A DNA stretch of 64,000 nucleotides, taken from positions 17,586 through 81,585 of the IMG/VR virus record IMGVR_UViG_3300045988_156148. The stretch is one strand, 5' to 3'. Under the pieces are notes generated by a model that saw nothing but the letters and a program-made list of their open reading frames with translations, was not told the origin of the DNA and searched no databases. Both the position numbers and the translations under genes were made by a program. The DNA is from a virus. How positions within the stretch are numbered: position 1 is the first letter of the stretch; every line of letters starts with the position of its first letter. Positions 3,001 to 61,195 of the stretch are shown piece after piece.

Positions 3001-3798
3001 ATTACTAATGTTCTAAATGCAGGTTTAGCTTTATTATATTCTTATGTTAAATATAATGGTAATCTTCAAAATATAAAAGAAATACCTCCTTTTAAGATTG
3101 AAATTAAAGGGTTAGAAGGTAGGTCTAAATTTATATATAAGTATTTAGCAACAAGCGATGCAACTAAGGAAACAAATCTATATCTTGGGAATGGTACTCA
3201 TGAACTACCCAAATCGTTCCTTCCGACAGAGGCTTTGGTTAATGATGCTGTGGTAGGTTTTTCAATAAGTCCAATTGAAGAAGGAGTTACCAATTTTTTA
3301 AGTGATATTACTATTGAAGTTCTTCCTGAATATGAAAATGGTTTAGCTTATGATGGAATAACTGATTATAGCAAGAATGCTAATATTCCTGTGCTTACAG
3401 ATTATACTTATATTTATAAAAGAACTATTATAAATATCCCGATTAATGCAGCAACTTTGTTAAAGGGTGCTGATAAAACTAGTGGCGGTGCATTTATTGC
3501 TGATTATGGAAATAAATGGCAATTTAATTTTGGTCAATATAATATTATACAAGGTATAGCTGATGGAATAAATTGGCAAACTGTCAATAGCTTTAATGGG
3601 ACTTCTATTAATAAGGGGGAGAATACTGATGATAGTGGAATTACAGTAGCTAAATTTAGTAATGGATATACCAGTATGGTATTCTACAAACTAATCCTCT
3701 ATCCGAAAACCATATCGTTACTAGAGATTAACTTCCTAAAGAACCTGATGGAGAAAGACGAAATAATTGATTTAAATAATAAAATATTTATACAATAA
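1..3798 (+). CDS. Large modular tail fibre / receptor-binding protein; 5' end probably lies outside the window
   Basis: ORF from ATG 37, but the frame is open to nt 1 (LIDYSGNGRDIQ), which matches internal motifs (DISGHGNHG.., NFAYEGMSGYNGY). Three LamG/concanavalin-like modules each open with xDGxxDF/Y (LLDGINDF, CLDGVDDF, AYDGITDY) and close with YSLMSF / LYDFMLF / FYKLILY. There are also tandem ~95-aa beta-sandwich repeats (PVIxSNV..GDYxP..FTxNG..SPQxxxITI). Confidence 0.75.
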   Translation, partial: LIDYSGNGRDIQMNNLAWKGGSGIAAKQYETFKDWTSESSSTSIITQIDEFTRIVESTTNGYWVSRIRRDSDLNKVYDAINVYLYQDNNSLVHECKYEVDGIKYSIPINESVGKGYHKLEMYTKDRYTELPENAENVVLSEWYFPKSTKGSIKYSIIPSCKGGILLDGINDFGKVTGMPVYKDFTVVTDREMFAHIGAISSKNNPGAFIETAGNSVYSFGQGTSGLNFISTRSISYLSKYSYCGQSITAGAAEDGTDMWLGTIRDNDSRFLNGTIYSLMSFPYSMSEFLIERQLKKHKLGTLYPDMVEFRPVIKSNVLLDAKPTFVIRGTSTYLNAGDYVPENSQIWVSIKMNNIADRITKFTVNGKTIDIPENAYSEVTLQYGFPFVIDKSPQKISITIEQDENYVKFEPVITSNVEYVRLDFYLNNYQKRINIGDYIPKDAYLRANLYLKNNVDELTVFTFNGVNIGYRRSSVDDTAFNISQIYNYDSPQEVNITIDEYIRYEDIVQPYPVLLRFNDENGNEVSWGDKIKVGSSITRIGSAADSNLLPNIYNIFGLLLNDNQVTSSKVIVEKTMVFKAKSAYIFDNNEPKVILSPSRLRIPNPSYKILGHIPDISGHGNHGVIHNSAYAGASGANGYPYDYNNSSFWCDSILAKVVSGELIEYFAVKNSTGFSNITSGVYKGEIKVTGVTKAISENKISRLRIYTNSTTDNELIDITQDGNYNIDIKGVGDANRVFFYAIPNNPNESIVVRLTEPIYIEQVGEYEGAYCLDGVDDFVAIPTVTGGKQVLMKVNWQSEVGAVTLYDQRLNLPDYEFAIYNGTRDLDDNPVIAYQGRNNGQTYIDGILNSNIMASELKAITHNITITNELSLGTNNTYPVIGSTRSNTHFAQMSLYDFMLFDNISTDDKIKELNEYVGIEAKVELPPYYWDAYGKTNLDADKATIQQRGVAVGDYDLINNNFAYEGMSGYNGYPVVFGASKTWANESNGYVSSITSNTIHITNVLNAGLALLYSYVKYNGNLQNIKEIPPFKIEIKGLEGRSKFIYKYLATSDATKETNLYLGNGTHELPKSFLPTEALVNDAVVGFSISPIEEGVTNFLSDITIEVLPEYENGLAYDGITDYSKNANIPVLTDYTYIYKRTIINIPINAATLLKGADKTSGGAFIADYGNKWQFNFGQYNIIQGIADGINWQTVNSFNGTSINKGENTDDSGITVAKFSNGYTSMVFYKLILYPKTISLLEINFLKNLMEKDEIIDLNNKIFIQ

Positions 3799-3799
3799 A

Positions 3800-4096
3800 A
3801 TGAAAAAGTTAATTGAAAAAATAAAAGCTTGGTATAAAGAAAGCAATAGAGATAAGCACTCATACGTGGGTGCTATCATCTATTGTACTTTTTTTGTAGT
3901 AGGTTTTGCATTAGGGATAGAACTTATTCCTAATGCTGTTATCGCTACAGGAGCTACAGTAGCTTCTATGATGTCAGCTGAATATAAAGACAAGGAACAT
4001 GGCTCTTTGTTTGATTGGCTAGATATTCTTGCGGGTATGACATATCCTATACTGATTGATATTGTTTGTTTAATTATTTACTTAATTATAAAATAA
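3800..4096 (+). CDS. Small membrane protein (2-3 predicted TM segments), holin-like size
   Basis: 98 aa with hydrophobic stretches (YVGAIIYCTFFVVGFALGIELI, ILAGMTYPILIDIVCLIIYLII). Starts 2 nt after the upstream stop. Confidence 0.5.
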   Translation: MKKLIEKIKAWYKESNRDKHSYVGAIIYCTFFVVGFALGIELIPNAVIATGATVASMMSAEYKDKEHGSLFDWLDILAGMTYPILIDIVCLIIYLIIK

Positions 4097-4097
4097 G

Positions 4098-4454
4098 ATG
4101 AAATATATTGTATTACCAAAATCCGTTTTAGACGAAGTTCCACAAGAGACGTTAAATGAGTTGCATTTAGTACCTAGAGTAAGCACAGATGGGGAATCTG
4201 TATTAATGAAAGTCGCAAATTACGAATTACTTTTCCCTCTTGCTGTAACTCTTCCTGAACTAGGAGAAGATACTCCTGTTGAACCAATATATCCATATCC
4301 TACTTATGAAGGAGATGCCCTAAATACTTTATTGCAAAGTAGCGAATGGACTAGTCAAGATAATTCTGTTTTAGGCGAATCTATTCTTGAATCTCCAACG
4401 GTGAAAACTACTTCTTCTAAAACAAGAAAGAGTACAAAAAATACCGTGTTATAA
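4098..4454 (+). CDS. Hypothetical protein
   Basis: Tightly packed co-directional ORF. No motif recognised. Confidence 0.5.
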   Translation: MKYIVLPKSVLDEVPQETLNELHLVPRVSTDGESVLMKVANYELLFPLAVTLPELGEDTPVEPIYPYPTYEGDALNTLLQSSEWTSQDNSVLGESILESPTVKTTSSKTRKSTKNTVL

Positions 4455-4464
4455 AAAATATTAT

Positions 4465-4472
4465 TATCTTTG
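4465..4472 (+). promoter_or_regulatory. Bacteroidota-type -7 box TATCTTTG
   Basis: Matches TAnnTTTG, 31 nt upstream of ATG 4503, in an intergenic gap. Confidence 0.35.
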
Positions 4473-4502
4473 TATAAATATTAACAAAGAAATATAGAAA
4501 TA

Positions 4503-4892
4503 ATGGATTGGTCAAATATTATACAATTAGCATTAGCTATAGGGGGAAGTGGGGGAATATTGACAGTATTGATAGCTTTCTATAAAGCACGTCCTGAAAA
4601 AATATCCTACGAGGTAAAAACTCTTCGTGAAATAATAGAAACTATAAAGAAAGAGAGAGAAGAGGACAAGCTAGAGGATGCACAAGAAAGGCAAAAATTG
4701 GAACGAAGATTAGGTGAAATAGAAATAACCAATTCTGTATTACAGAAAGCTATTCAACAATGGGTTAAATGTTCCCATTTACCAAAAGATGCAGTGTGTC
4801 CCGTATCTGATTTCGTAGACCGAGCCGAAGAGCTAATAACTAAAAAGGTAGAAGCGTTGCACCAATCCATGGAAGAAAATAATAAAGAATAA
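4503..4892 (+). CDS. Membrane-anchored coiled-coil protein
   Basis: N-terminal TM segment (IIQLALAIGGSGGILTVLIAF) followed by a charged helical region. Confidence 0.55.
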   Translation: MDWSNIIQLALAIGGSGGILTVLIAFYKARPEKISYEVKTLREIIETIKKEREEDKLEDAQERQKLERRLGEIEITNSVLQKAIQQWVKCSHLPKDAVCPVSDFVDRAEELITKKVEALHQSMEENNKE

Positions 4893-4897
4893 AGAAC

Positions 4898-4929
4898 CCC
4901 ACTACGCAAATGTCGATAAACGTAGTGGG
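4898..4929. terminator. 9-bp stem hairpin, possibly a bidirectional terminator
   Basis: CCCACTACG (4898-4906) pairs with CGTAGTGGG (4921-4929). A T-rich tract follows on the - strand and an A-run follows on the + strand. Confidence 0.4.
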
Positions 4930-5003
4930 AAAAAATGTCCTTATCCAAAGCCATATAATAAACACATACAAATATACGGCTTTATTTTAAAATAGCAAAT
5001 ATA

Positions 5004-8000
5004 ATGGTAGAAAAGTTACTTATATATACTGATGATGAGGAATTAGGCGTTATATCTTTCCCTAAAGATGGAACGCAAGCTGCCCTTAGTAGTTATACAT
5101 TCACCGAGGGAAGAATGGGTAGCGTAAATATAAGTAGCAGTCCCATGTATCCTAAGTGCTTGGATGATGAATGGACGCAGAGGGAATTTGTGGAATTTAG
5201 GGGAGAAAGATATTGGATTTTAGATACACCTACTTCATCTAAGTCAAATACAGATCTAAGATATAAACATGAGCTTGTATTTAAATCCGATAGAACTAAA
5301 CTGGATAATACTTATTTCTTTGATGTAGTATCTCCTGATGCAGGTGATGTAGACCAATTTGTCAGCAATAGTACAAAGTTCACCTTCTTTGGAGATATTG
5401 CAGAGTTTGCAACAAGATTGAATTACTCTTTACAATACAGTGGAGTAGGTTATTCTGTTGTAATTGACGAAGGTATATCCTCCGAAGCTAAACTAATGTC
5501 GTTTGAGGACAAGTATTTTAGTGAAGTTCTACAAGAAGTATTTAATGTTTATGAACTACCTTATTATTTTGTCGGTAAGGTAATCCATATCGGATTTACT
5601 AATAATGCTATTACTCATACATTTAAATACGGTTATGATAGGGAACTACTGACAATAACCAAAACAAACGCAAACTATAAAATAGTTAATCGCTGTACAG
5701 GTATCGGTAGTACTGAAAATATTCCTTATTACTATCCAAATGATACAAGAAAAGGAGATGTCAGGGCTGTTGCCGGAGAAGATAATATCTCAATTAAAAC
5801 AGAAGATATACAAATCGTAAATAACGATTTATATAAAGAGAAGGTTTCATTGGAAGAAAAGGTTGAATTTAAAAAAACTAAGCTTCCTATTACTACTCAA
5901 TTATACATTAATTTAAATGAGCAATACCCTTATACACAAGCGGTAGAGACTGTTCCTACTATTAGAGATGGAGCTACAGCGAATTTTAAATGGTTTGAAA
6001 CGTCTTATAATTATTATGCAATAATAGATTTATCTAATGAAGCTACTATTTATTTAACTTTAAAATTATGGGCTAACTTAAAATATTCCTATATACAAAA
6101 GGGCGGTATTATATTGGGAGAAAAGCAAGCTGCAAGAAAAATGAATTTTGCTTCATTTTCTTTATATAAAAGAAATGAATCAGATACAGATTGGGTTTTA
6201 ATTAAAGCCGACCAAAAGTCTGAAACGACAGTATCGTTTAATCTTAATGAAGGAACAAATAAATTAAAAATAGTAGGTTCTTATTCTACCTTAGTAAATG
6301 TTAGTGATTATTATGTATATGGGAATCAAAAAGCTTTTCTTGAAATAAGTAGAGAATCAACAGCAGAATATAACTTATGGAGTTATAAAGATAATACTGT
6401 TAGTCTTAGCGATATTGGTATATATATTACAAAAACACCTTCTATTGGAGATTACTTTGTTCAAAAGCAAGTTGAAGGGAATTATATGATTACTTCTCCT
6501 AATCTATTGCCATCTATATACAGAGAGACGTTTGGTGCAGAACGATTCTATGACGCAAAAAACCAAACCTATATAAATCCTGATACAGAAAGCTACTACG
6601 ACTTCGAGAACCCTTATACGGAAGGTAATCCTAAGGAAATGATTGTTTCTTTTGATTATATCAAGCCGACTATCAAAGGAATTGAGAATGCAGCAGGATA
6701 TAAAATAGGAGAAATATTAGATGTAGCTTTTGATGATGATGATAATGATGAAATAGACCCTAACACAAATGAATACGAACATAAATATTTCTACATAAAG
6801 CTAAGAAAGTTTGATGGGGATTATGGCTTTAATCTCTTTGACCAAGCTATCGTAGGTAGTGATATGACCATCTCAATGACGAGTGGTAATTGTGCTGCTT
6901 GTAATTTTGTCATATCCGTATTAGAAGTAGAAGATAAAGACAATAATATCACAATATTCAAGAATCCTGTACAAGTGGATTCTAGTGGCAATATTGTAAC
7001 AGGTAGTGAGGATGATAAATGGAATGAGGCAAATATTCAGCCTCAACAACAAGATACAACCACAAATGAGGTATGGATTAGGGTAAGCAAAGATGATGAT
7101 ACATTCGGAGTTGTAATGCCATCTAACAACCGCAACTATAAGCCTAAATCAGGAGATTCGTTTGTTCTGTTACATATTGATTTGCCTAAACAATATATCC
7201 TTAATGCAGAGAATGAGCTTAAAGAAGCTATCATTAAGTATATGGCTGCCAATAATAGTGAAAAATTCAACTTCTCTATTAACTTTAAGCGTACATTCTT
7301 TGCTGAATATCCTGAAATGCTTTCACAGATTGATGCTAATGCACGATTGCAGATAGAGTATAACAACAAGCTGTATGAACTGTATGTCAGTCAATACACT
7401 TATAAGGTAAATGAGACAGACCCTCTTCCTGAAATTACGGTAGAATTATCCGATACCATAACGATACGTAAAGGTAATGTCCAAAAATCTATTGATGCTG
7501 TAAAACAGGATATTATGTCGTCTATCGGTTCTATCGACTTTTTAAAGATGGGACTGAAATACTTTATTAGAAAAGATGTTGATGATACAGCTAACGGACA
7601 TATAATATTTAAAGACGGGATTTATGTTACTGGGAATAGCGAGGAAGGAGCTACCGATTTCCTGTGTGAAGGTGGCATAGATAATATTCAAGAGGGTAAC
7701 GGAGATTTCATACAGGAAGATTCCGGGATTATCAAAGCTGTAGAAATTCCTCAAACTCTTGGTAGTTTATATAATGTCAATCCTATTGTAGATGAGATTG
7801 CTACAGAAGATGTCGTACTTGTAAAAAAAGTTGGTTCTACGAAATGGACGCGGGAAAGAAAGAGTATGACAGAAGGCATAACTGATGCCCCAAGCAATAA
7901 CATCTTATATGGTCGTAAAAACAAAGAGTGGATTAAAGTTCCTGGCACTCCGACAAAACTTCCTAATCCTAATGCTCTTTCTTTTACAGGTGCAATACAA

Positions 8001-8779: not shown

Positions 8780-9358
8780 ATGGCAGAAATCAAAGGTACA
8801 AATGTTGCATCTAAAATAGTTCCCTATACTGATTCAGACGAATATGCTACTCATGACGAAAAATATGGTGTAGGAGGATATAGAACAGTAGATAGTGTAA
8901 GCGAGATGAATGCTATTCCTGCTGCAAGAAGAAAAGAAGGAATGCTAGTAAATGTAAAAGGGGATAAAATTTACAAGCTTAACAGTAGTAATACGTTTGT
9001 TAATGCTGGACTTGGAGTTGGTGAAGTAACTGATTGGAATTCAGGCTCAAATCTCTCTCAAAACGGTTATCAAAAGTTTAGTAATGGGCTGATGATTCAG
9101 TGGGGGACAAGAGCCGGAGCAACCAGGGGGGCAATTAATCTGTATTTTCCTACCAGTTTCTATAATACTGATTATAACATTTATTTCACTGGGGCAGTAA
9201 ATAATACAAGTGAATCTTTTATATATGCTCCGGGGTATGACCTTAATGGTAAATATACATCATATTGTAGAGTTCTCACCCGTGGAATAAATTCAACTCC
9301 GGCTATTGTTTGGACTAGCTGGAATTTTACATGGTTAGCTATAGGACGTTGGAAGTAA
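8780..9358 (+). CDS. Tail fibre protein with exchangeable C-terminal receptor-binding domain
   Basis: 192 aa. The C-terminal domain starts at NGYQKFSNGLMIQWG, a motif typical of fibre C-terminal domains. Inverted-repeat copy IR-L lies at this domain boundary. Confidence 0.7.
   Translation: MAEIKGTNVASKIVPYTDSDEYATHDEKYGVGGYRTVDSVSEMNAIPAARRKEGMLVNVKGDKIYKLNSSNTFVNAGLGVGEVTDWNSGSNLSQNGYQKFSNGLMIQWGTRAGATRGAINLYFPTSFYNTDYNIYFTGAVNNTSESFIYAPGYDLNGKYTSYCRVLTRGINSTPAIVWTSWNFTWLAIGRWK
9056..9078 (+). repeat. IR-L of a 23-bp perfect inverted repeat
   Basis: TCTCAAAACGGTTATCAAAAGTT, read directly from the sequence. Its exact reverse complement is at 9486-9508. Confidence 0.9.
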
Positions 9359-9469
9359 CTATTTCCATCTACCTATTGCAATCCAATTATAAGCTTCTCC
9401 GGCAATAGTCCCATACTGTATAGATTTTATAATAAAGGCAGTAATCACTAAAGTTACACCACGCTGATT
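9359..9469 (-). pseudogene. Remnant of an alternative tail-fibre C-terminus (Sv'-like)
   Basis: The minus strand reads NQRGVTLVITAFIIKSIQYGTIAGEAYNWIAIGRWK*. Its end parallels FTWLAIGRWK* of CDS 8780..9358. It is in frame with IR-R but separated from it by three stops. Confidence 0.45.
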
Positions 9470-9485
9470 TTACAAATTTCATTAT

Positions 9486-9508
9486 AACTTTTGATAACCG
9501 TTTTGAGA
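9486..9508 (-). repeat. IR-R of the 23-bp perfect inverted repeat
   Basis: The forward strand reads AACTTTTGATAACCGTTTTGAGA, which is the reverse complement of 9056-9078. Confidence 0.9.
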
Positions 9509-9549
9509 TAGATTTGAAAATTAATTATTAAATTTACAAAAAAAAAGAC

Positions 9550-10077
9550 ATGAAATACTGGAAGCAAGGATTTTACGATGAACCAATAGAGGGTTCGGTA
9601 GAAATAACAGACGAATATTGGCAATCATTACTTGATGGGCAAAGCGATGGAAAGGAGATAGTAGAAGATGTAAATGGTCGTCCTATCCTTCAAGAACACA
9701 TATTTACTTTAGAAGAAGTAAAAGAGCATACATTATACAATATTCAGAGGTACGATAAATCTGAATATGTAAATAGTTTCTTGCTCAATGGAGATAGTAT
9801 TTGGTTAAGCAAAGATTTACGAACTTCCATAATGAATGCTGTTGCGATTAAAAAGAGCAGAAACATTAAAACATCAAGTATTTGGTATAATCAGAAAGAG
9901 TATGTTCTCCCTGTTGATTTTATATTAGATATGTTAGATGATGTGGAGATATACGCTGATACTTGTAATAGCGTTACACAAAGACATATCGCAAATGTTA
10001 TGGCTATGACAGATATAGATGAAATTAATAATTATGACTATACTTTAAATTATCCAACTAAAGTGAACTACCCATGA
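9550..10077 (+). CDS. Tail-fibre assembly / chaperone-like protein (DUF4376-like C-terminus)
   Basis: The N-terminus MKYWKQGFYDEPIEG..YWQSLLDGQSDGKEI resembles tail-fibre assembly proteins, and the gene sits right after a fibre gene. Its last codons (VNYP) and stop come from the IS right end. Confidence 0.5.
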   Translation: MKYWKQGFYDEPIEGSVEITDEYWQSLLDGQSDGKEIVEDVNGRPILQEHIFTLEEVKEHTLYNIQRYDKSEYVNSFLLNGDSIWLSKDLRTSIMNAVAIKKSRNIKTSSIWYNQKEYVLPVDFILDMLDDVEIYADTCNSVTQRHIANVMAMTDIDEINNYDYTLNYPTKVNYP

Positions 10078-10200
10078 GCTAAAAGCTCATGGGTTTCGTG
10101 GGCTGCGCAAGTAACCTCGCTCATATCTCCACACGCGTAAATTTCGGTCGTTCCAACCGTATTTATGTTCCGAAAAGCAAATCTCTTGATGTTATTAGCT
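10063..10200 (-). ncRNA. Putative omega-RNA (reRNA) scaffold overlapping the tnpB 3' end and the right end
   Basis: In known TnpB systems the guide RNA derives from the tnpB 3' end plus the right end. Two hairpins are present here, and the last 71 nt are conserved in an orphan copy at 37406-37476. The 5' extent is unknown. Confidence 0.4.
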
Positions 10201-11267
10201 GCAAGGAAATCTCTATCGTGAATTGAGCCACATTCTGGGCAAGTCCATTCACGCATGGCGAGTGTTAGGTTGTGATTAATATATCCGCAAGTACACATTT
10301 TAGAACTTGGTTCAAAGCGACCAATACGAAGAATATTAACTCCTCGCTCTTTTGCCTTGTATTCTAACAGTGTATTGAATGTTCCTATGGCAATATCCGA
10401 TAGTGATTGCGCAAGGTGGTGGTTCTTTATCATCCCTTTTACATTCAAGTCCTCAAGACAGATTGTATCATAGTTATTCACAAGATATGATGTAACCTTA
10501 TGCAAGAAGTCATTTCTTCTATTAGTTACTTGCTCATGCGCTAAAGCCAATTTTCTTCTTGCTTTACCTCTATTCTTAGAACCTTTTGTCTTGTGCAACA
10601 AAGAGCGTTGAAGTTTCTTGACTTTATCAAGTGATTGTTTTAGATGTTTAGGATTAGGTATTTCAGTACCATCTGAAAGGACAGCAAATGTTTTAATCCC
10701 AAGGTCTATACCAACTGCTTTGTTCTCACAAATTGGTTTCATAGATACATCGGGTTCATCCACTTCCACAAGGATAGATATGAAATACTTACCTGTTGAT
10801 GTTCTTGTAATAGTAGAAGTTTTAACTATACCATCAAAGGTGCGATGTAATATTGCTTTAATTCCACTTTTGAATTTAGGAATGAATATTCTTCCATTCT
10901 CGAAATCAACCTTTGTATTTTGAGGTATAGAAAAACTTTGCTTGCTATCTTTTTTTGATTTGAATCTTGGAAAGCCTTTATGCTCCCTAAAGAACCTAGC
11001 GTAGGCAGAATCAAGATTAGCAAGCGATGCTTGAAGGGAAAGCGAATTGACTTCTTTTAGCCAACAATACTCATCTGACTTTTTCATATTCGGCAGATCT
11101 GCTTGAATATCGAAGCGAGAAAGATTAGTTTTATCAGTTTGAAAAGCCTTCACTTTCTTAGCAAGAGCATAATTATAGATGAAACGACAAGAACCAAGAT
11201 GCTTTGCTATAAGCACCTTTTGCTCCTCATTCGGATATAATCTATATTTATATGCTCTATATTTCAT
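10068..11267 (-). CDS. tnpB: RNA-guided endonuclease TnpB (IS605 OrfB family), apparently intact
   Basis: Starts MKYRAYKYRLYPNEEQ at the internal ATG 11267; the longer ORF to 11354 is an upstream extension. RuvC-I GIDLGIK, RuvC-II CLEDLN, zinc finger CTCG..CPECG and RuvC-III HDRDFLAANNI are all present. Confidence 0.9.
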   Translation of the reverse strand: MKYRAYKYRLYPNEEQKVLIAKHLGSCRFIYNYALAKKVKAFQTDKTNLSRFDIQADLPNMKKSDEYCWLKEVNSLSLQASLANLDSAYARFFREHKGFPRFKSKKDSKQSFSIPQNTKVDFENGRIFIPKFKSGIKAILHRTFDGIVKTSTITRTSTGKYFISILVEVDEPDVSMKPICENKAVGIDLGIKTFAVLSDGTEIPNPKHLKQSLDKVKKLQRSLLHKTKGSKNRGKARRKLALAHEQVTNRRNDFLHKVTSYLVNNYDTICLEDLNVKGMIKNHHLAQSLSDIAIGTFNTLLEYKAKERGVNILRIGRFEPSSKMCTCGYINHNLTLAMREWTCPECGSIHDRDFLAANNIKRFAFRNINTVGTTEIYACGDMSEVTCAAHETHELLAHG

Positions 11268-11271
11268 ACCA

Positions 11272-11279
11272 CAAAGATA
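11272..11279 (-). promoter_or_regulatory. -7 box TATCTTTG, 4 nt upstream of the tnpB ATG (near-leaderless)
   Basis: The forward strand reads caaagata. The same TATCTTTGTG..ATG arrangement is found at the second tnpB (60260-60274). Confidence 0.4.
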
Positions 11280-11417
11280 ATATAATTTAGCGAAACGCAA
11301 AAGAACTTCTAAAAATTTTGTGTTCACGAAAAAAAATGTACCTTTACAACGCAATTCATCCGCTTAAGTTAAAGACTTATGAGATTTCTTGCTATTTTTA
11401 TTTAAAAATTAATTACA

Positions 11418-28718: not shown

Positions 28719-29837
28719 TTAATCATCCAACTTTTTCCAAATATATCCACCACACCTTTTTGTAATTCCCTTTATATTTTGCCATATACACGAATAGCGT
28801 ACACCTGTTGAGTTACTAGCACTTCTTATTCCATCATACTGTGCTATAAAAACGCCATTTAGGTCGTATTGTTCTATCTTAAAGTCATTAGGAAAATAAG
28901 CTCTTATCTCTTTTTTGTTTTTGATAGACTCTTTGACTGGCTTATTTTCACATTCAGACATTGGCTTATAGGTGTCACCAAGAACTTTTCCAATAGTCTC
29001 ATCGTAAGGCTCTATCTTTATGGGATAATCATCAGATACTTTCTTGTATAAAACATAACCATTTACGTATTTGCCATAAGGAATGTTATGGTTGCGGCTA
29101 AAAGACAAAGCTGCACGACGCTTACTCTCATATTCCCCACAAAAATTACCCTGTGAATCATACTTTAATGCATGAGGAACTACATGAGATACATACTCCT
29201 TCTCAACAACACGCCTTACTACCTCATTACGAACTATAGTGCGTGTGCGATTAATCACTTTATAACCAACAGGCTCTATGCGATCGGGAATATAACCATA
29301 CCTGCCTGTCTTGAAAATATACTTACCCTTGTATATCTTAGACTTGTCAAGATAACGAGATAATTCGTGATCTAATAAACCAATATCATAACAACAACGA
29401 CCCTTTGAATGATAGCTTTTTTGAAAATATCCATCTTTATCATAAACCAAAACTTGGCAAGAAGTACCATTAGTCTGAATATCTTCCACAGGAATACCCA
29501 ATATTTCACCTCCTATGCCGGAATTATAACCATTTGGGTGCAAAGTATCAAATTCACGAATATATTTTATCTCCAATATAGACAGACAAAGAAGAGTGTC
29601 TGATTTACACAAAGAAGAAATCTCGCAAATAACAGAAACATATACATTATCAATACCAAATTTACGTAATGCCAACATGTTCTTTGACGCATCGCCAAAA
29701 TTACGAGATAGTTGAGACTCATACAACTTCATACGATCATGAAGACATTTAGTCTGTCCAATATAACACTTACCATCAGGATAGGTCAGCTTATAAATAC
29801 AAGCACATTGCAAGTCCTTAGCTTCTTCAAATTTCAT
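28719..29837 (-). CDS. GIY-YIG homing endonuclease with repeated C-terminal DNA-binding modules
   Basis: CIYKLTYPDGKCYIGQT..(R)..NGYNS GIY-YIG core. Start taken at MKFEEAKD (ATG 29837) because the -7 box lies at 29854-29861. Three NUMOD/IENR-like repeats are present (YHSKGRCCYDIG, YESKRRAALSF, YDGIRSASNSTG). Confidence 0.8.
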   Translation of the reverse strand: MKFEEAKDLQCACIYKLTYPDGKCYIGQTKCLHDRMKLYESQLSRNFGDASKNMLALRKFGIDNVYVSVICEISSLCKSDTLLCLSILEIKYIREFDTLHPNGYNSGIGGEILGIPVEDIQTNGTSCQVLVYDKDGYFQKSYHSKGRCCYDIGLLDHELSRYLDKSKIYKGKYIFKTGRYGYIPDRIEPVGYKVINRTRTIVRNEVVRRVVEKEYVSHVVPHALKYDSQGNFCGEYESKRRAALSFSRNHNIPYGKYVNGYVLYKKVSDDYPIKIEPYDETIGKVLGDTYKPMSECENKPVKESIKNKKEIRAYFPNDFKIEQYDLNGVFIAQYDGIRSASNSTGVRYSCIWQNIKGITKRCGGYIWKKLDD

Positions 29838-32888: not shown

Positions 32889-33077
32889 ATGAAAGTGAAA
32901 ACATTATCAAAAGAGTATCACAACAAAGTTGTTAATTTCCCTAATTTTGATAAAAGCGGAAGTATTAGAGGTATGAAAAAACTTTATTACGGCAAAGACG
33001 CATTACTTGTTAGGTGTGGTGGATATATTTACAATGTAAGTGCCGAACCTTCAATTTATTACGAACTAGCATATTAA
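32889..33077 (+). CDS. Hypothetical protein
   Basis: Packed co-directional ORF. Confidence 0.45.
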   Translation: MKVKTLSKEYHNKVVNFPNFDKSGSIRGMKKLYYGKDALLVRCGGYIYNVSAEPSIYYELAY

Positions 33078-34526: not shown

Positions 34527-35099
34527 ATGAATAAGTTTGTTTCAAAACGTGGTGAGATATGGAAAGATATACCAAAATTTGAGGGCGTATATCAAATATC
34601 AAATTTGGGGCGTGCAAGAAGTTTGAAAAAGAATAGGATATACTTGTTAAAAAATAACATAGACACTAACGGATATTATTATATCATCCCATACGTAAAT
34701 AAAAAAACGTATACTCATTATAAAATACATAGATTAGTTGCATTATTGTTTGTAGACGGATATAAAGAAGGTTTAGTTGTTAACCATAAAGACGGTAATA
34801 AATTGAATAATAATGCATCTAACCTTGAATGGGTGACAAGTTCTTATAATAATAAACACGCTTTTGATATAGGACTCAAGAGGAAAGGAGTACACGAAAA
34901 TTGTAGAAAAGCTTGCATAGAAAAAACAAGCATTAAAGTTAAGTGTATCGACATTAATACGGGTGTAGAAAAAACATTCCGTTCAATGAAACAAGCTGCC
35001 AAAGAAATAGGCGGGACAGGTGCGGGTATTAAATATAGCATAAAGAATAATAAGCCATACAAAAAAAGATATTTATTTTATGAAATTTATATACGCTAG
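34527..35099 (+). CDS. HNH homing endonuclease (NUMOD4 + HNH_3 type)
   Basis: EIWKDIPKFEGVYQISNLGRARS..HRLVALLF..VNHKDGNKLNNNASNLEWVT. Paralog of 48437..49195. Confidence 0.8.
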   Translation: MNKFVSKRGEIWKDIPKFEGVYQISNLGRARSLKKNRIYLLKNNIDTNGYYYIIPYVNKKTYTHYKIHRLVALLFVDGYKEGLVVNHKDGNKLNNNASNLEWVTSSYNNKHAFDIGLKRKGVHENCRKACIEKTSIKVKCIDINTGVEKTFRSMKQAAKEIGGTGAGIKYSIKNNKPYKKRYLFYEIYIR

Positions 35100-35823
35100 A
35101 TGTTCAACGGAAAAACAAGACTTTGAACAACAAAAAGAATGTATAAAACAGTATTTGAAAAGAATAGGAGACAATTCAGATATTAAAGAAGTTGTAGAAA
35201 AAGTTTCAGGGACTATAAAACATACAAAACGAAAACTGCAAGAAGTATTAGAAATGTGCAAGAGTGGAGACACTATATATATATCTGAATTGTCTCGATT
35301 AGGTAGAAGTATGAATGATTTATTTTCTATTGTTTCTTATTGTGGAGAAAAAGATATAACTATAATACAATGCAAAGACGGAACTATAATAGAAAATAAA
35401 TCAATAGGTGGAAAAGCCCTTCTTTTTGCATTATCATTAGCCGCTGAAATTGAAGTAGAAAACATACGTCAGCGTACACGTATGGGACTAGCCGCAAGAA
35501 AAGCGAAAGGTATGCAAACAGGCGGAACAAATGAATTGTGGGGAAAGAATAGTTCTACAGATAGAATAGTTTCAATAAATAAGATGCACGATGAGTCCGC
35601 AAACAAAAGGCGAGAAAATGCACGTGTTAATGAAAGTAATGTGTTTTTTTGGGCTTTCATTACTGATTGGATAAAAGATAAGGGAGAGCCTAGAAACTAC
35701 GAAATTTGGGGAGATATTGCACAAAAATTGAATAATCTGAATCAAAAGACAGCTACAGGAATGGAATATAATTCAGTTCGTGCGGCTGCAATGTATCGTA
35801 AACTTAAAAAAATAATGAAATAA
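35080..35823 (+). CDS. Small serine recombinase (resolvase/invertase family)
   Basis: IYARCSTEKQ (catalytic Ser), GDTIYISELSRLGRS and ENIRQRTRMGLAARKAKG match the resolvase catalytic domain. A ~100-aa C-terminal region may contain an HTH. Confidence 0.8.
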   Translation: MKFIYARCSTEKQDFEQQKECIKQYLKRIGDNSDIKEVVEKVSGTIKHTKRKLQEVLEMCKSGDTIYISELSRLGRSMNDLFSIVSYCGEKDITIIQCKDGTIIENKSIGGKALLFALSLAAEIEVENIRQRTRMGLAARKAKGMQTGGTNELWGKNSSTDRIVSINKMHDESANKRRENARVNESNVFFWAFITDWIKDKGEPRNYEIWGDIAQKLNNLNQKTATGMEYNSVRAAAMYRKLKKIMK

Positions 35824-48436: not shown

Positions 48437-49195
48437 ATGGAAACATATCATAATTTATCATTAGAAGATTTACCAAATGAAATTTGGAAAGATGTAGTTG
48501 GATATGAAGGACTATATCAAGTAAGTAATTTAGGAAGAATAAAGTCATTGGATAGATATGTTGAATATCCTAATTATATAAAAAGAATAAATGGTAGAAT
48601 TATGTCCCAGCAAGATAATTCTAAAGGATATTTAATGGTTAATTTAAGTCTTAATGGTTTCACGAAAAAATTATATGTACATAGATTAGTTGCCGAAGCA
48701 TTTATTCCTAATCTCGCTAATAAAGTAGAAGTAAATCACATAGATTTAAATAAAAAAAACAATATTATTTCAAATTTGGAATGGTGTACTAAAAAAGAAA
48801 ATATGCGCCATGCACATGAAAATGGAGCTATTAAATATACTAAAGTATATCAATATTCTATTAATGGAGAATATGAACAGGAGTTTAATTCATTATTAGA
48901 CGCATCTATTTTTCATAACATAAGAAGTGGGGATATATGCAGGTCATGTAATGGTGAAAGGGCGGTATGTAGAGGACATATATTTAGATATTATAAAAAA
49001 GATAAGATATATATACCTTCTAAAAAATTTAAAAGAGTTTTGATGTATGAAGGAAGTACATTAATTAAAGATTTCCCCTCTACAAAAGATGCTTCTAAAT
49101 ATTTAAAGGTTAAGGAAAATTCTATTGTTTCATCTTGTCTTAGAGGATATAAATGTAAAGGTTATAATTTAAAATATAAAGAAAATGGAAAATAA
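48437..49195 (+). CDS. HNH homing endonuclease (NUMOD4 + HNH_3 type)
   Basis: EIWKDVVGYEGLYQVSNLGRIKS..HRLVAEAF..VNHIDLNKKNNIISNLEWCT. Inserted between the SSB-like and RecT genes. Confidence 0.8.
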   Translation: METYHNLSLEDLPNEIWKDVVGYEGLYQVSNLGRIKSLDRYVEYPNYIKRINGRIMSQQDNSKGYLMVNLSLNGFTKKLYVHRLVAEAFIPNLANKVEVNHIDLNKKNNIISNLEWCTKKENMRHAHENGAIKYTKVYQYSINGEYEQEFNSLLDASIFHNIRSGDICRSCNGERAVCRGHIFRYYKKDKIYIPSKKFKRVLMYEGSTLIKDFPSTKDASKYLKVKENSIVSSCLRGYKCKGYNLKYKENGK

Positions 49196-50069
49196 GAAAG
49201 AACTAGTCAAACCTGTATTGGTTGAAGAAAAAGCATTAGCAAAGATACAATCCTATATGGAATTAGGTATGACAATCCCCGAAGGATTTTCACCAGCAAA
49301 CAGTCTTAAGAAAGCCCGATTTATGTTGAATGACATGAAAGTAGGAGGAAAGCCTGTATTAGAAGTTTGCACGGAAGAATCTGTAATGCAAGCATTATTA
49401 GATTCAGTTGCTAAAGGATTAGATTTCTCGGAATCTCAAATATATTTTATTCCAAGAAATAATCAAATGACTACAATGGAAAGTGTATATGGGCGCATTG
49501 TAAGGGCAAAAAGAGCTTCCAAATTTTATAAACCTATTGTTGGATATGTTCATGAAGGAGACATTTTTGATTTTGGAATAGATGTAAATACTGGGTATAC
49601 TAAAATCATTGAACACAAAACATCAGTTGAAAATTTAGATAAGCCATTTATTGCTGCTTATGCTTATGTTACAGATAATGATGGTAATACTGATGTTTTT
49701 GTTATGACGCGAAAGGAATGGTTGAAATCGTGGACTAAATCCTCAAATGGAGCAAGTGTAGCAAAAGATTTTGAACGTGATATGATTTATCGAACGATTA
49801 TTAAAAAATCTACTAAATCATTAGTCAATTCTAATGTTAAATATATGGGTACTCTGATTGACGAAGAAGATGATATTCCTTTGGCAGGTGAAACATCACC
49901 TATGATTGATAAATCAAAAGTTGGTGAGGTTGTAGAATATGAAGAAGTACAAGAAACTGTAGATGCATCCACATTAGGTAACAAAGAAGAACTTAATGGT
50001 GCAAATGCAGGTGACTCGGTAACAACCAAAGAGGAAAAGAAAGAACAAATTAAAGAACGTCCGTTTTAA
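49185..50069 (+). CDS. recT: RecT-family single-strand annealing protein
   Basis: ..ESVMQALLDSVAKGLDFSESQIYFIPRNN..VYGRIVRAKRAS..VHEGDIFDF.. matches the RecT pattern. Sits in a recombination-module context. Confidence 0.7.
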   Translation: MENKKELVKPVLVEEKALAKIQSYMELGMTIPEGFSPANSLKKARFMLNDMKVGGKPVLEVCTEESVMQALLDSVAKGLDFSESQIYFIPRNNQMTTMESVYGRIVRAKRASKFYKPIVGYVHEGDIFDFGIDVNTGYTKIIEHKTSVENLDKPFIAAYAYVTDNDGNTDVFVMTRKEWLKSWTKSSNGASVAKDFERDMIYRTIIKKSTKSLVNSNVKYMGTLIDEEDDIPLAGETSPMIDKSKVGEVVEYEEVQETVDASTLGNKEELNGANAGDSVTTKEEKKEQIKERPF

Positions 50070-60144: not shown

Positions 60145-61170
60145 CCGATGAAACCCCTAAGTCTTTAGCTTCTGGGAGGAATTGAGCCACTATTCCCTCT
60201 TTTGTTAAACTTAATAATATTATTTTCTTCAAACATTTGAATAATTTAGTTATTTTCCATATCTTTGTGACATGAAATTGACTTTGCAAATAAAACTGAT
60301 TCCATCGGACGAGCAAGCCATAATGTTGAAAAAGACATTTAGCGTTTTTAATGAGGCTTGTAACACTATCTCGCAGATAGCATGGGAACGTCGTGTGTTC
60401 AATCAGTTCAGTCTGCACAAGGAGGTTTACCATCCAATCAAGGGGACATACAGCCTTCCCTCCCAACTTGTTATACGTGCAATCAGCAAGGTTGCCGACG
60501 CATACAAACTCGACAGAAAAAAACAAAGACGTTTCCGTGAATTCGGAGCTATCACGTATGACAGTCGTGTGCTTTCTTACAATACCCAAAGAGGTATCTG
60601 CTCCATTTCGCTTATTGATGGGCGTGAGAAGATGACATATACTTGCTATCGTCCACAGCTCATGAAGTTCGCAAAGGGAGAAGCTGATCTTGTTCTTGTC
60701 AAAGGAAAATTCTACCTCTATCAGACGATAGACATTCCAGACGAAGAAGAAGAGACAGCGGAGGTTTTTCTTGGAGTGGATATGGGTATAACCGATATTG
60801 TCTCCTTGTCTGACGGGACTAATATATCCTCTGATGAAGTCAAGAACATACGCAATAGATACAATAAAGTGAGAGCTTCTATCCAGTCCAAAGGCACTCG
60901 CAACTGTCATAAGTTGTTGAAACGGTTGAAAGGACGTGAGAGAAGATTTGCCACCATTGTGAACCACCGTATAAGTAAACAACTCGTCGCAAAGGCAAAG
61001 GAAGAGCATAAAGGCATTGCCATTGAAGACTTGAAGAATATCCGTTGGGGTATGAACTCCAAGAAACGCAATAAAACGTTCAGAAGGAGAAGCAACTCGT
61101 GGAATTTCTATCAGCTCCGATCTTTCCTCGAATACAAGTGCAAGATAGCTTGCGTATTAGCAGTTGCTCC
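60145..61170 (+). mobile_element. 3'-truncated tnpB element (left end and promoter retained, right end/omega-RNA missing)
   Basis: The left-end motif TAAGTCTTTAGCTT (60158-60171) lies at the same distance from the ATG as in the 10-kb element. -7 box TATCTTTG is at 60260-60267. Boundaries are approximate. Confidence 0.55.
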
Positions 61171-61195
61171 ATCACGTAAAGCCAAAGTGTTCTGA
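60272..61195 (+). pseudogene. tnpB: Truncated TnpB (lacks zinc finger and RuvC-III)
   Basis: MKLTLQIKLIPSDEQ.., RuvC-I GVDMGITD, RuvC-II IAIEDLK and FLEYKCKIA are present. Homology is then lost and the ORF runs into the antisense of the neighbouring gene. Antisense ORF 60131..61009 is spurious. Confidence 0.7.

Follow-up and report, generated by a model that had tools for sequence, protein, structure and literature searches.

A tail-fibre tip inversion switch in a family of human-gut phages and its probably locked, insertion-scarred copy

The window, by which we mean the whole 64-kb stretch of DNA analysed, most likely carries a degenerate copy of a tail-fibre tip inversion switch, in which the silent tip appears to have been hit by an insertion sequence (IS) and then deleted, so that the phage would be locked on a single expressed tip, here called type A. 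Comparison with about 36 related contigs indicates that the family concerned, human-gut phages of ~81-86 kb whose host is probably Bacteroides, has a working tip switch with a layout like that of the Mu G segment. Since the copy in the window is in this reading a relic, its interest lies mainly in the phage family: the locus points to uncultured gut phages of ~84 kb that would swap the receptor-binding tip of a small fibre by DNA inversion, with at least seven interchangeable tips circulating among them.

Gut Bacteroides evade phages by flipping the promoters of their capsules and surface proteins. To our knowledge, programmed variation by the phages of Bacteroides has been little documented, diversity-generating retroelements aside. 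No description of such a fibre-tip switch was found in the literature searched on Bacteroidota or gut phages, in agreement with the sequence-only reading on which this analysis follows up and which knew of none, and cultured-phage records held no close relative of the locus.

Repeats, expressed tip and relic in the window

The features concerned are given below, with positions counted from the first letter of the window.

8780 to 9358, plus strand: tail-fibre tip protein gene (192 aa), an open reading frame whose first 92 codons (8780-9055) form the constant N-terminal part, with the tip after it
9038 to 9078, plus strand: left inverted repeat, with a perfect core of 23 nt at 9056-9078, within coding sequence (..SNLSQNGYQKF)
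9079 to 9358, plus strand: expressed tip cassette, type A (GTRAGAT...FTWLAIGRWK and stop), delimited by comparison with relatives
9359 to 9436, minus strand: 3' remnant (25 codons and stop) of a second tip (type F) that faces cassette A tail to tail, recognised by its similarity to contig L142
9437 to 9495, plus strand: IS1595-family scar, the terminal 59 nt of one end, with the outer terminus GGCAG at 9437 and the IS interior rightward
9486 to 9526, minus strand: right inverted repeat, core 9486-9508
9550 to 10077, plus strand: tail-fibre-assembly-like gene (175 aa), matching PHROG 188 'tail fiber assembly protein' (E 7.5e-8) in its N-terminal part
35080 to 35823, plus strand: small serine recombinase (247 aa, Pfam Resolvase), a candidate invertase that would act on the segment in trans

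The window has exactly two copies of the core TCTCAAAACGGTTATCAAAAGTT, one at 9056-9078 (+) and its perfect 23-nt inverse at 9486-9508 (-), and no third appears when three mismatches are tolerated, while none of 100 dinucleotide-preserving shuffles of the window yielded two matches. The pair extends to 41 nt at 88% identity (9038-9078 / 9486-9526), in which form it is both the top-ranked and the longest inverted repeat of the whole window, and it brackets the Gp53-like_C tip of the fibre gene. The product of this gene matches the PHROG tail fibre families 1396 and 4209 and contains the Pfam domain Gp53-like_C (PF21882) at residues 99-190 (E 9e-10, 39.4 bits against a gathering cut-off of 24.9, with the profile covered over all its 84 positions). 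The repeats are thus placed at the junction of the constant and variable parts inside the fibre open reading frame, the left one encoding residues S93-F100 (codons 93-100), and the constant N-terminal part is 96-99% identical in relatives carrying different tips.

The anatomy of the relic that faces cassette A is supported by aligning the window, the F tip and the IS end with one another. Its fibre-derived portion consists of the last 26 codons of the F tip (FIIKSIQYGTIAGEAYNWIAIGRWK and stop), positions 9359-9436 matching at 68 of 77 nt the 3' terminus of the F tip that L142 has intact (..SKYKSYFIIKSIQYGTIAGEPYNWFAIGRWK and stop), and the homology ends exactly at the IS terminus. The following 59 nt, a single-copy sequence in the window, are identical at 57 of 59 positions to the IS end in contigs L141 and L001 and at 96.6% to positions 638-696 of MT838557.1. 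In MT838557.1 and in L141, a Bacteroides ovatus MAG, the element is complete, with terminal inverted repeats of ~34-60 nt and 8-bp target duplications (TTCGTATT; TTAATAAG), and complete copies encode an IS1595 transposase (NF033547, E 1e-58). The donor-like copies L001 and L141 have terminal inverted repeats at both ends, a DDE transposase and an 8-bp target duplication, whereas the window retains one truncated end that matches the terminal inverted repeat of complete elements, without transposase, second end or target duplication, and holds therefore a scar rather than an element. The first 10 nt of the right repeat, AACTTTTGAT (9486-9495), are common to the IS end, and this microhomology marks what reads as the joint of a deletion, which we infer it also drove. 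MT838557.1 was rejected as a relative of the phage, the 59-nt match being to a Bacteroides-type IS in a misfiled record.

Most of what the sequence-only reading had claimed for this segment was borne out. The perfect 23-nt repeats lie exactly where it had placed them, as a pair that none of the 100 shuffles reproduces, their extension to 26 of 27 nt is correct, and the left copy stands at the start of the C-terminal domain, which begins at residue 99. The two stop codons abut tail to tail as described (TAA at 9356-9358 next to TAG, the complement of 9359-9361), and the minus-strand reading inward from the right copy is exact. The similarity it had noticed between the two endings, NWIAIGRWK and FTWLAIGRWK, proved significant, since for five of six tip types none of 2000 shuffles scored as high, besides the 68 matching nucleotides with L142. 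Its decayed second cassette of 36 codons had to be divided: the last 26 codons are indeed fibre tip, whereas the IS1595-family end accounts for 'NQRGVTLVITA' and for the three stops. In place of a second complete variable part, the repeats of the window thus enclose 26 codons and an IS scar.

Alternative tips in related phages

An intact second cassette between the repeats, which the sequence-only reading had proposed to look for in related phages, is present in 12 of the ~36 contigs: in these, perfect repeats of 50-61 nt enclose two alternative tips, both intact and placed tail to tail. Intact two-tip relatives are represented, for instance, in ERZ1643247 NODE-276, OPEV01000272, ULRZ01016754 and ODVQ01000303. 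The relic allele is found in 14 contigs of the set, and eight relatives have a single tip. Seven tip types were distinguished (A, B, B', C, D, E and F), and four of them (A, B, B' and D) are found expressed in some contigs and silent in others; type A, for instance, is expressed in L101, L092 and L110 and silent in L115. The same pairs of tips were found in both orientations between collinear flanks. Between L103 and L110 the flanks are 100% and 99% identical and the interior matches in reverse only (92.6%, vs 75.4% forward), and between L110 and L115 the right flank is 99.7% identical with an interior at 99.3% reversed vs 70.6% forward. L101 and L115 (left flank 99.7%, interior 93.9% reversed) as well as L092 and L115 are among the further pairs in opposite orientation. 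The orientation of L115 is unlikely to be a choice of the assembler, because its perfect repeat run of 51 nt is shorter than k=55 in this 130x contig. Another both-orientation example, L111, is weak as evidence of orientation because it is a 4x contig with Nextera adapters on both ends.

Silent tips evolve under purifying selection, as seen with two diverged silent type-C tips (dS 0.72, dN/dS 0.15). Two intact tips, their occurrence in both orientations and this selection together argue for a working switch in the family, laid out like Mu G. Silent tips have also decayed independently elsewhere, by frameshift or deletion, in L103 and L117. The switch has been lost repeatedly in the family, by IS hit, frameshift or complete loss. 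A prediction of host range from a single assembled orientation is unreliable for these phages.

The 23-mer core is invariant or differs by 1 nt in most relatives, a YVKF variant of the left repeat with 2-3 mismatches being carried by L117 and L142. Within each genome, both copies of the inner 27 nt of the repeat are the same variant, irrespective of the tip type. Of the perfect 50-61 nt of intact loci, the right repeat in the window has 23 nt left. The assembly-like gene 9550..10077 is not part of the invertible segment; it adjoins the right repeat in all relatives and is constant across them.

These comparisons suggest the following history. Intact members possess a segment of 565-577 bp, bounded by the perfect 50-61-nt inverted repeats and holding two alternative Gp53-like_C tips tail to tail, and a flip of this segment would fuse either tip to the constant part of 92 codons. 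In the lineage of the window, an IS1595-family element from a Bacteroides host would have struck the silent type F tip, and two copies of AACTTTTGAT would later have bounded a deletion that took the IS body together with the 5' two-thirds of the tip. The tip would thereby have been cut down to 78 nt, the IS end to 49-59 nt and the right repeat to 23 perfect nt (41 imperfect), which corresponds to the relic described above. A host-derived insertion sequence could in this way lock the tip of a phage, and its scar indicate the host genus.

Candidate recombinase and crossover site

The gene 35080..35823 is the only serine recombinase found in the window, 25.6 kb from the segment; the neighbours of the latter are a fibre gene, the assembly-like gene and a TnpB gene, with no adjacent Hin-family serine invertase. 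Its product has a Resolvase catalytic domain (PF00239, E 9e-31) with the nucleophilic Ser and conserved Arg of small serine recombinases, followed by the E helix, and the catalytic motif R7/S9 is invariant in 28 homologues. It matches PHROG 125 'DNA invertase' (E 7e-38), its best PDB sequence match is Gin, and its best NCBIfam match is the Mpi-family master DNA invertase (NF009949, E 9e-31), at 107 bits, below the cut-off of 272. The predicted structure (mean pLDDT 81) has gamma-delta resolvase, Tn3 resolvase and Gin as top folds; this is the fold of a small serine recombinase, within which a fold search does not separate invertases from resolvases. The recombinase belongs to the core genes of the phage family, being present with one, two or broken cassettes, and its link with the segment is one that we infer, because as a core gene it also occurs in relatives without a second cassette. 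The chances that this Gin/Mpi-like enzyme of the phage catalyses the inversion seen in the family appear about evenly balanced.

The window-type allele of the recombinase (99%) was found with single or relic loci only (5/5), and an allele at ~55%, carried for example by IMGVR 3300045988_149538, with intact, relic and single loci, numbers too small for an association between allele and cassette state in a core gene. A 19-nt perfect inverted repeat at 28739-28757 / 33012-33030 was considered as an alternative target for the enzyme, but relatives do not preserve the pair.

Inversion in the family could also be real and proceed by general homologous recombination across the 50-61-nt repeats, through the RecT-like annealing protein of the phage or the RecA of the host rather than an invertase, which we regard as possible though improbable; the window's copy, with its 23 nt, would then be essentially inert. 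The long perfect repeats of intact loci fit this mechanism, as does the covariation of the two copies within genomes, which gene conversion predicts; moreover, the phage encodes RecT-like (49185..50069) and SbcC-like proteins and the presence of the recombinase does not follow the cassette state. It is also favoured by the lack of a dyad-symmetric site in the repeat: a 26-bp crossover site of the gix/cix/hix type, with two dyad-symmetric half-sites around a 2-bp core, was not found, the best dyad in the 58-nt consensus repeat reaching 7/10. The 12-mer TTATCAAAAGTT matches the Hin half-site at 9 of 12 positions and the repeat matches the Mpi consensus at only 7 of 10, both no more than leads; nothing convincing as a gix-like or Mpi-like site was found in the repeat. 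As far as we know, neither Fis nor a Fis-dependent enhancer is expected in Bacteroidota. However, the 23-nt core has stayed conserved along with about 8 nt beyond it, also on the right where the flank is non-coding, which suggests a protein-binding site; all members of the family have kept the Gin/Mpi-like recombinase, and a second group of gut phages with homologous tips rearranges at much shorter sites of ~15-20 nt, which call for a site-specific enzyme.

Fate of the relic allele and relation to described systems

The relic in the window probably no longer flips. The truncated (OFF) orientation was seen in 0 of the 14 relic-carrying contigs, and the OFF-junction pattern (left outer flank, repeat and relic) had no match in two large collections, of viral and of metagenome contigs. 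The left repeat is already mismatched in four relic-carrying contigs (L003, L004, L017 and L109). The absence of OFF contigs among the 14 fits a dead switch, and it also fits selection against tipless genomes and majority-consensus assembly. A search with the inner repeat plus relic gave 10 matches and was uninformative, the pattern not being orientation-specific, and the predicted OFF product, when searched for among proteins, gave two fragments only, neither of them informative.

Were the residual 23-bp repeats still recombined, the product would be a tipless protein of 100 aa (..SQNGYQKL and stop), the truncated fibre of the ON/OFF switch that the sequence-only reading had in mind, and an inverted 9079-9485 would show the junctions GGCTCAAATCTCTCTCAAAACGGTTATCAAAAGTTATAATG and CCCATTACTAAACTTTTGATAACCG. 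A live ON/OFF switch of this kind, in which the population toggles between the full-length protein with tip A and the tipless one and the relic allele is kept for that reason, is in our view unlikely. It would account for a 23-nt core still perfect here and in most relic contigs, for the serine recombinase with intact catalytic motif and for the frequency of the relic, which is paired with three different expressed tips. The inner 109 nt of the relic are moreover identical in all 12 contigs compared, with neighbouring coding DNA differing by 1-5%, and this invariance hints at a recent spread or a constraint that a pure wreck would not need. Against a live switch stand the missing OFF forms, the mismatched left repeats and the reduction of the repeat to 23 nt on the right side where intact loci retain 50-61 perfect nt, and an accident, IS hit plus deletion, accounts for the structure of the relic without any function. 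The stronger proposal, that the distal recombinase is a 'master invertase' of the phage flipping the tip segment in trans and that the invariant IS-scarred allele is maintained as a true ON/OFF switch, seems to us a long shot; if true, it would mirror, on the side of the phage, the phase-variable surfaces of Bacteroides. That no inversion takes place at all, the repeats being only what an inverted duplication, or a modular exchange of tips between phages, has left behind and the opposite orientations artefacts of assembly, is scarcely credible: De Bruijn assemblers may choose either orientation if repeats exceed k, and L111 is low in coverage and adapter-flanked, but there are several independent pairs, including the 130x contig with a perfect run below k, four tip types lie on both sides, silent tips show purifying selection and the window's own contig, k127_141655 from sample ERR912139 (PRJEB9576), was assembled at k=127, far above its 23-nt repeat.

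A probably locked copy of a tip switch, as we read the window, is closest in layout to the host-range switches Mu G/Gin and P1 C/Cin (van de Putte 1980 and Giphart-Gassler 1982, as cited in PMC12823448 and PMC13501310). As in these, the repeats lie where the constant N-terminal part of one fibre open reading frame gives way to alternative C-terminal parts that bind the receptor, the two alternatives stand tail to tail so that a flip swaps the tip, and the phage encodes a small serine recombinase homologous to Gin. The Gin/Cin layout proposed by the sequence-only reading is real as an arrangement of constant and invertible variable parts, but it does not extend to the recombinase, which is 25.6 kb away instead of adjacent, to a gix/cix-like dyad, or to the assembly genes, U and U' being inside the Mu segment while the single assembly-like gene is here outside the right repeat. 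Here, in addition, about 100 codons are swapped, corresponding to one Gp53-like_C domain of a 192-aa protein, the host is Bacteroidota-associated and one of the alternatives has been destroyed in this window.

The recombinase recalls the Mpi system of Bacteroides fragilis by its best NCBIfam match, by the action in trans on a distant site that it would have and by the same host phylum. It differs from it by a score far below the family cut-off and by a length of 247 aa with a predicted four-helix C-terminal domain; Mpi, moreover, flips promoters and not coding segments.

Programmed gene-altering inversions were predicted by Milman et al. (2023) from a scan of representative bacterial genomes (RefSeq), with 'Tail fiber protein' and 'tail fiber assembly protein' among the enriched categories and with tail-fibre targets in prophages confirmed by long reads (PMC9881135). 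Our locus resembles these cases in its repeats overlapping a gene and an opposite partial paralogue, and in the size asymmetry between gene and pseudogene. Putative invertons on gut viral contigs have also been described, the example being a Microviridae capsid gene (TPMM 2026, PMC13501310). Neither study covers the phage family of the window, its tip repertoire or the IS-scarred allele.

The pool of tips, seven types across genomes, is reminiscent of p15B Min and of R64-type shufflons, but a genome of the window's family has no more than two cassettes, and the recombinases of shufflons are tyrosine enzymes (Rci). The second, unrelated gut-phage group, in which no recombinase was found inside the loci examined, also resembles these multi-cassette systems: it has the A tip in common with the window's family (~90% aa) and up to five cassettes, with two assembly genes inside the segment, and it rearranges at the repeated short sites.

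The fibre-tip cassette and its repeats

In the window, the 23-mer TCTCAAAACGGTTATCAAAAGTT has two sites, 9056-9078 (+) and 9486-9508 (-), and no third even when up to three mismatches are allowed; two matches were obtained in none of 100 shuffles. Its extended arms, 9038-9078 and 9486-9526, are complementary over 41 nt at 88% and constitute the longest inverted repeat of the 64-kb window. The left copy encodes residues S93-F100 of the 192-aa ORF 8780..9358, which matches tail-fibre families in PHROG and whose C-terminal 92 residues, from residue 99, correspond to the Pfam tail-fibre tip Gp53-like_C. The sequence-only reading had described a repeat pair bracketing a fibre tip, which is borne out by the exact 23-mer pair and by this domain; its minus-strand translation and its adjoining stop codons are likewise as it stated, and the architecture and ancestry that it proposed, an invertible fibre-tip cassette, are judged to be right. 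The window originates from the human-gut metagenome ERR912139 (MEGAHIT contig k127_141655, 81.7 kb).

Some minor features accompany the repeats. TAGATTTG (9509-9516) lies where the right repeat extends outward, 34 nt 5' of the assembly-like gene (9550..10077, +); it matches by eye the Bacteroidota -7 promoter motif TAnnTTTG, and this promoter-like motif could be the reason for the approximately 8 conserved nt outside the 23-mer in the non-coding right flank. Where the two tips meet, their 3' ends (..AIGRWK*) constitute an imperfect palindrome with its centre at 9358/9359 (9338-9379 in the window; also in L010, L015 and other relatives). A single exact copy of the 23-mer lies without fibre context at 5516-5538 of an unrelated 514-kb contig (L102, Ga0206118_100016), which is roughly the chance expectation for a collection of such size.

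Alternative tips and inversion among gut phages

About 36 distinct contigs of the window's phage family, mostly of 81-86 kb, were gathered by scanning viral and metagenome collections with protein and DNA patterns; they display three classes of locus and seven types of tip (A, B, B', C, D, E and F). Twelve contigs carry the intact second cassette sought in relatives, as two tips arranged tail to tail and both ending ..AIGRWK*. The repeats of these two-tip loci start 565-577 nt apart and are perfect for 50-61 nt in 10 of the 11 contigs showing both copies, the exception being L142 (YVKF variant), with a mismatch close to the start of the repeat core. The silent tip is broken in 16 other contigs: 14 share the relic of the window, an IS-scarred remnant of a silent tip facing an expressed A, B or B' tip, and two (L103 and L117) have an A tip disrupted by frameshift or deletion. 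The third class (n = 8) has a single A tip and no right repeat. Most relatives (L082, at 3315-5439; L084, L089, L091, L093, L097, L099 and others) also possess an added module, absent from the window, in the interval from the 1241-aa fibre gene to the tip gene: one further constant-part-like gene (~53% aa) plus one further fibre C-terminus (~42% aa).

Several independent pairs of contigs indicate that the fibre-tip segment does invert in this family. L103 and L110 share flanks at 100% and 99.0%, and their interiors match in reverse only (92.6% vs 75.4% forward); L110 and L115 share the right flank at 99.7% and the reversed interior at 99.3%; L101 and L115 share the left flank at 99.7% and the reversed interior at 93.9%; and L092 shows the same pattern against L115. 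The orientation of L115, a 130x SPAdes contig, is unlikely to be a random choice of the assembler, since its repeat stays perfect for 51 nt, whereas the largest k is usually 55. The inverted state of L111 (OXUB01004325.1) was discounted as weak, this contig having 4x coverage and Nextera adapter sequence at each terminus.

The tips and repeats point in the same direction. Types A, B, B' and D were each found both expressed and silent, and two type-C tips in silent position differ by a dS of 0.72 with a dN/dS of 0.15, values from which we conclude that silent tips are expressed often enough to stay intact. The inner ~27 nt of the repeat exist as several variants (TAGTAATGGG.., CAATAATGGG.., TAATAATGGG.., TCAAACCGGG..) that agree between both copies of each genome whatever the adjoining tips, which shows that the copies within a genome interact.

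The A tip (~90% aa identity) is also the terminal part of a 1085-aa fibre encoded by a different group of gut phages (contigs of 12-77 kb), whose system comprises up to five Gp53-like_C tips, with assembly genes within the segment. In L021 (3961-7002), a pair of opposed assembly genes comes after the expressed tip and precedes four further tips on the other strand, AAGTTCTCTCGGRAC being present once in the expressed gene and as four inverted copies before the silent tips. L021 and L035 (3100-6150) are 99.9% identical and yet differ in the block formed by the A tip and both assembly genes, which is reversed with respect to its two flanks and breaks at the AAGTTCTCTCGGRAC sites; L025 and L072 display the same inversion behaviour. 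Judging from these alignments the system is evidently active, and its multiple inversion at repeated short sites recalls p15B Min and shufflons. No recombinase was found within the loci of this group that were examined. The shufflon-like set takes in contigs L018-L042, L072 and L078.

The relic of the silent tip

The 127 nt separating cassette A, the expressed tip (9079..9358), from the right repeat have two distinct origins:

9359-9436, minus strand: tip remnant, translating as FIIKSIQYGTIAGEAYNWIAIGRWK*
9437-9495, interior rightward, terminus exactly at 9437: IS scar, matching one end of an IS1595-family element at 57/59 positions

MT838557.1 (L001) and a contig of a Bacteroides ovatus MAG (L141) each contain a complete version of the matching element. 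Both versions begin with GGCAGTGAACAC, are bounded by terminal inverted repeats and flanked by 8-bp target duplications (TTCGTATT; TTAATAAG); their transposase is of the IS1595 type (NF033547, E 1e-58). The remnant shares 68/77 identity with the 3' end of the intact L142 tip (..SKYKSYFIIKSIQYGTIAGEPYNWFAIGRWK*), and this homology ends at the IS terminus. The 10 nt AACTTTTGAT (9486-9495) close the IS stretch and at the same time open the right repeat. In the simplest history, the IS would have inserted into a silent 'F' tip, and the body of the IS, together with the ~205 nt at the 5' end of the tip, would then have been lost by deletion between both AACTTTTGAT copies. The alignments establish the insertion; microhomology as the mechanism of the deletion is our inference. 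The 36-codon decayed cassette of the sequence-only reading needs correction in 10 codons and all three stops, which are IS sequence because 9437-9495 is the IS end. MT838557.1, deposited in GenBank as 'Bacteriophage sp.', resembles a Bacteroides chromosomal fragment; it includes an ORF whose sequence presumably represents the terminal part of a gene like that of pyruvate phosphate dikinase, and its complete IS1595-family element carries passenger genes.

The window's element is a relic, and we think that the switch is dead in its phage, with tip A fixed, because the intact tip is fused to the constant part (8780-9055) in 14/14 relic contigs, a 43-nt pattern specific to the OFF junction (constant part to relic) has zero matches in both large collections (viral and metagenome), the right repeat retains 23 perfect nt vs 50-61 in intact loci, and a C-to-A change affects the left repeat of four relic contigs (L003, L004, L017, L109). 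This locked state parallels that of the single-tip and frameshifted relatives. If the segment still inverts, as the ON/OFF function put forward in the sequence-only reading would require, a 100-aa tipless protein ending ..SQNGYQKL* would be produced.

Across 12/12 compared contigs the relic is invariant over its inner 109 nt, with neighbouring coding DNA differing by 1-5%, and variation within the relic is confined to its first 18 nt (AIGRWK end). Such invariance does not fit a pure wreck; recent recombination-borne spread is its simplest reading, constraint on the relic being a possible alternative. The first 18 nt vary by lineage and are identical in L010 to the A-tip end of the window, a pattern that suggests exchange where the tips meet tail to tail, by crossover or by gene conversion.

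Candidate recombinase and related systems

ORF 35080..35823 (247 aa) is the sole recombinase-like gene among the subset of window ORFs scanned against family libraries. It encodes a small serine recombinase (Pfam Resolvase, E 9e-31; PHROG 125 'DNA invertase', E 7e-38) whose closest PDB sequence match is Gin and whose top NCBIfam match is the Mpi-family master invertase, at 107 bits and thus below the 272-bit equivalog cut-off. R7 and S9 are invariant in 28 homologues. Its AlphaFold model (pLDDT 81) resembles gamma-delta resolvase, Tn3 resolvase and Gin, with an extra, confidently predicted four-helix C-terminal domain. Whether this enzyme flips the fibre-tip segment appears to us evenly balanced, because its gene is 25.6 kb away from the segment and belongs to the core set of the phage family (682 homologues, mostly in 70-86-kb contigs), occurring with one-tip, two-tip and broken loci alike, and because no dyad-symmetric site was found in the repeat. 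Homologous recombination over the long repeats is a live rival, for which the phage encodes a RecT-like gene, and a host invertase is possible.

The design corresponds to that of Mu G and P1 C in both layout and function: the constant part, the inverted repeats at the junction and the tail-to-tail alternative tips are shared with them. However, the recombinase is here distant rather than adjacent to the segment, a gix-like site was not found, and the assembly gene is single and outside the segment. Since several defining features fail, we do not file the window's family with Mu G / P1 C. Tail-fibre inversions are known in prophages of bacterial genomes (PMC9881135), and a 2026 paper (PMC13501310), whose example is from Microviridae, claims to present the first putative invertons of viral contigs from the gut. 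A full-text search, whose scope falls short of most subscription journals, did not find the switch of this family, which is a variant of the classical inversion switch in a phage group without description in the literature searched.

Other mobile or repeated elements were observed in the window. An HNH/NUMOD4 homing-endonuclease-like gene (34527-35099) overlaps the start of the recombinase gene by 20 nt; the recombinase exists in the family as two alleles, with 99% and ~55% identity to that of the window, which could result from homing-linked allele replacement. A perfect 19-nt inverted repeat (28739-28757 / 33012-33030), with arms 4.25 kb apart and in different reading frames, encloses a divergent gene block 5' of the recombinase; it is not conserved as a pair, relatives having at most one arm. 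Close to the fibre locus, a TnpB gene (OrfB_IS605 / Cas12f-like TNB; 10068-11354, -) overlaps the last 10 nt of the 175-aa assembly-like gene. The same-site insertion is present in IMGVR 3300045988_161850 (98.8% aa), more distant TnpB paralogues occur at other places in relatives, and a second, weaker OrfB-like ORF is located at 60272-61195 (+) of the window.
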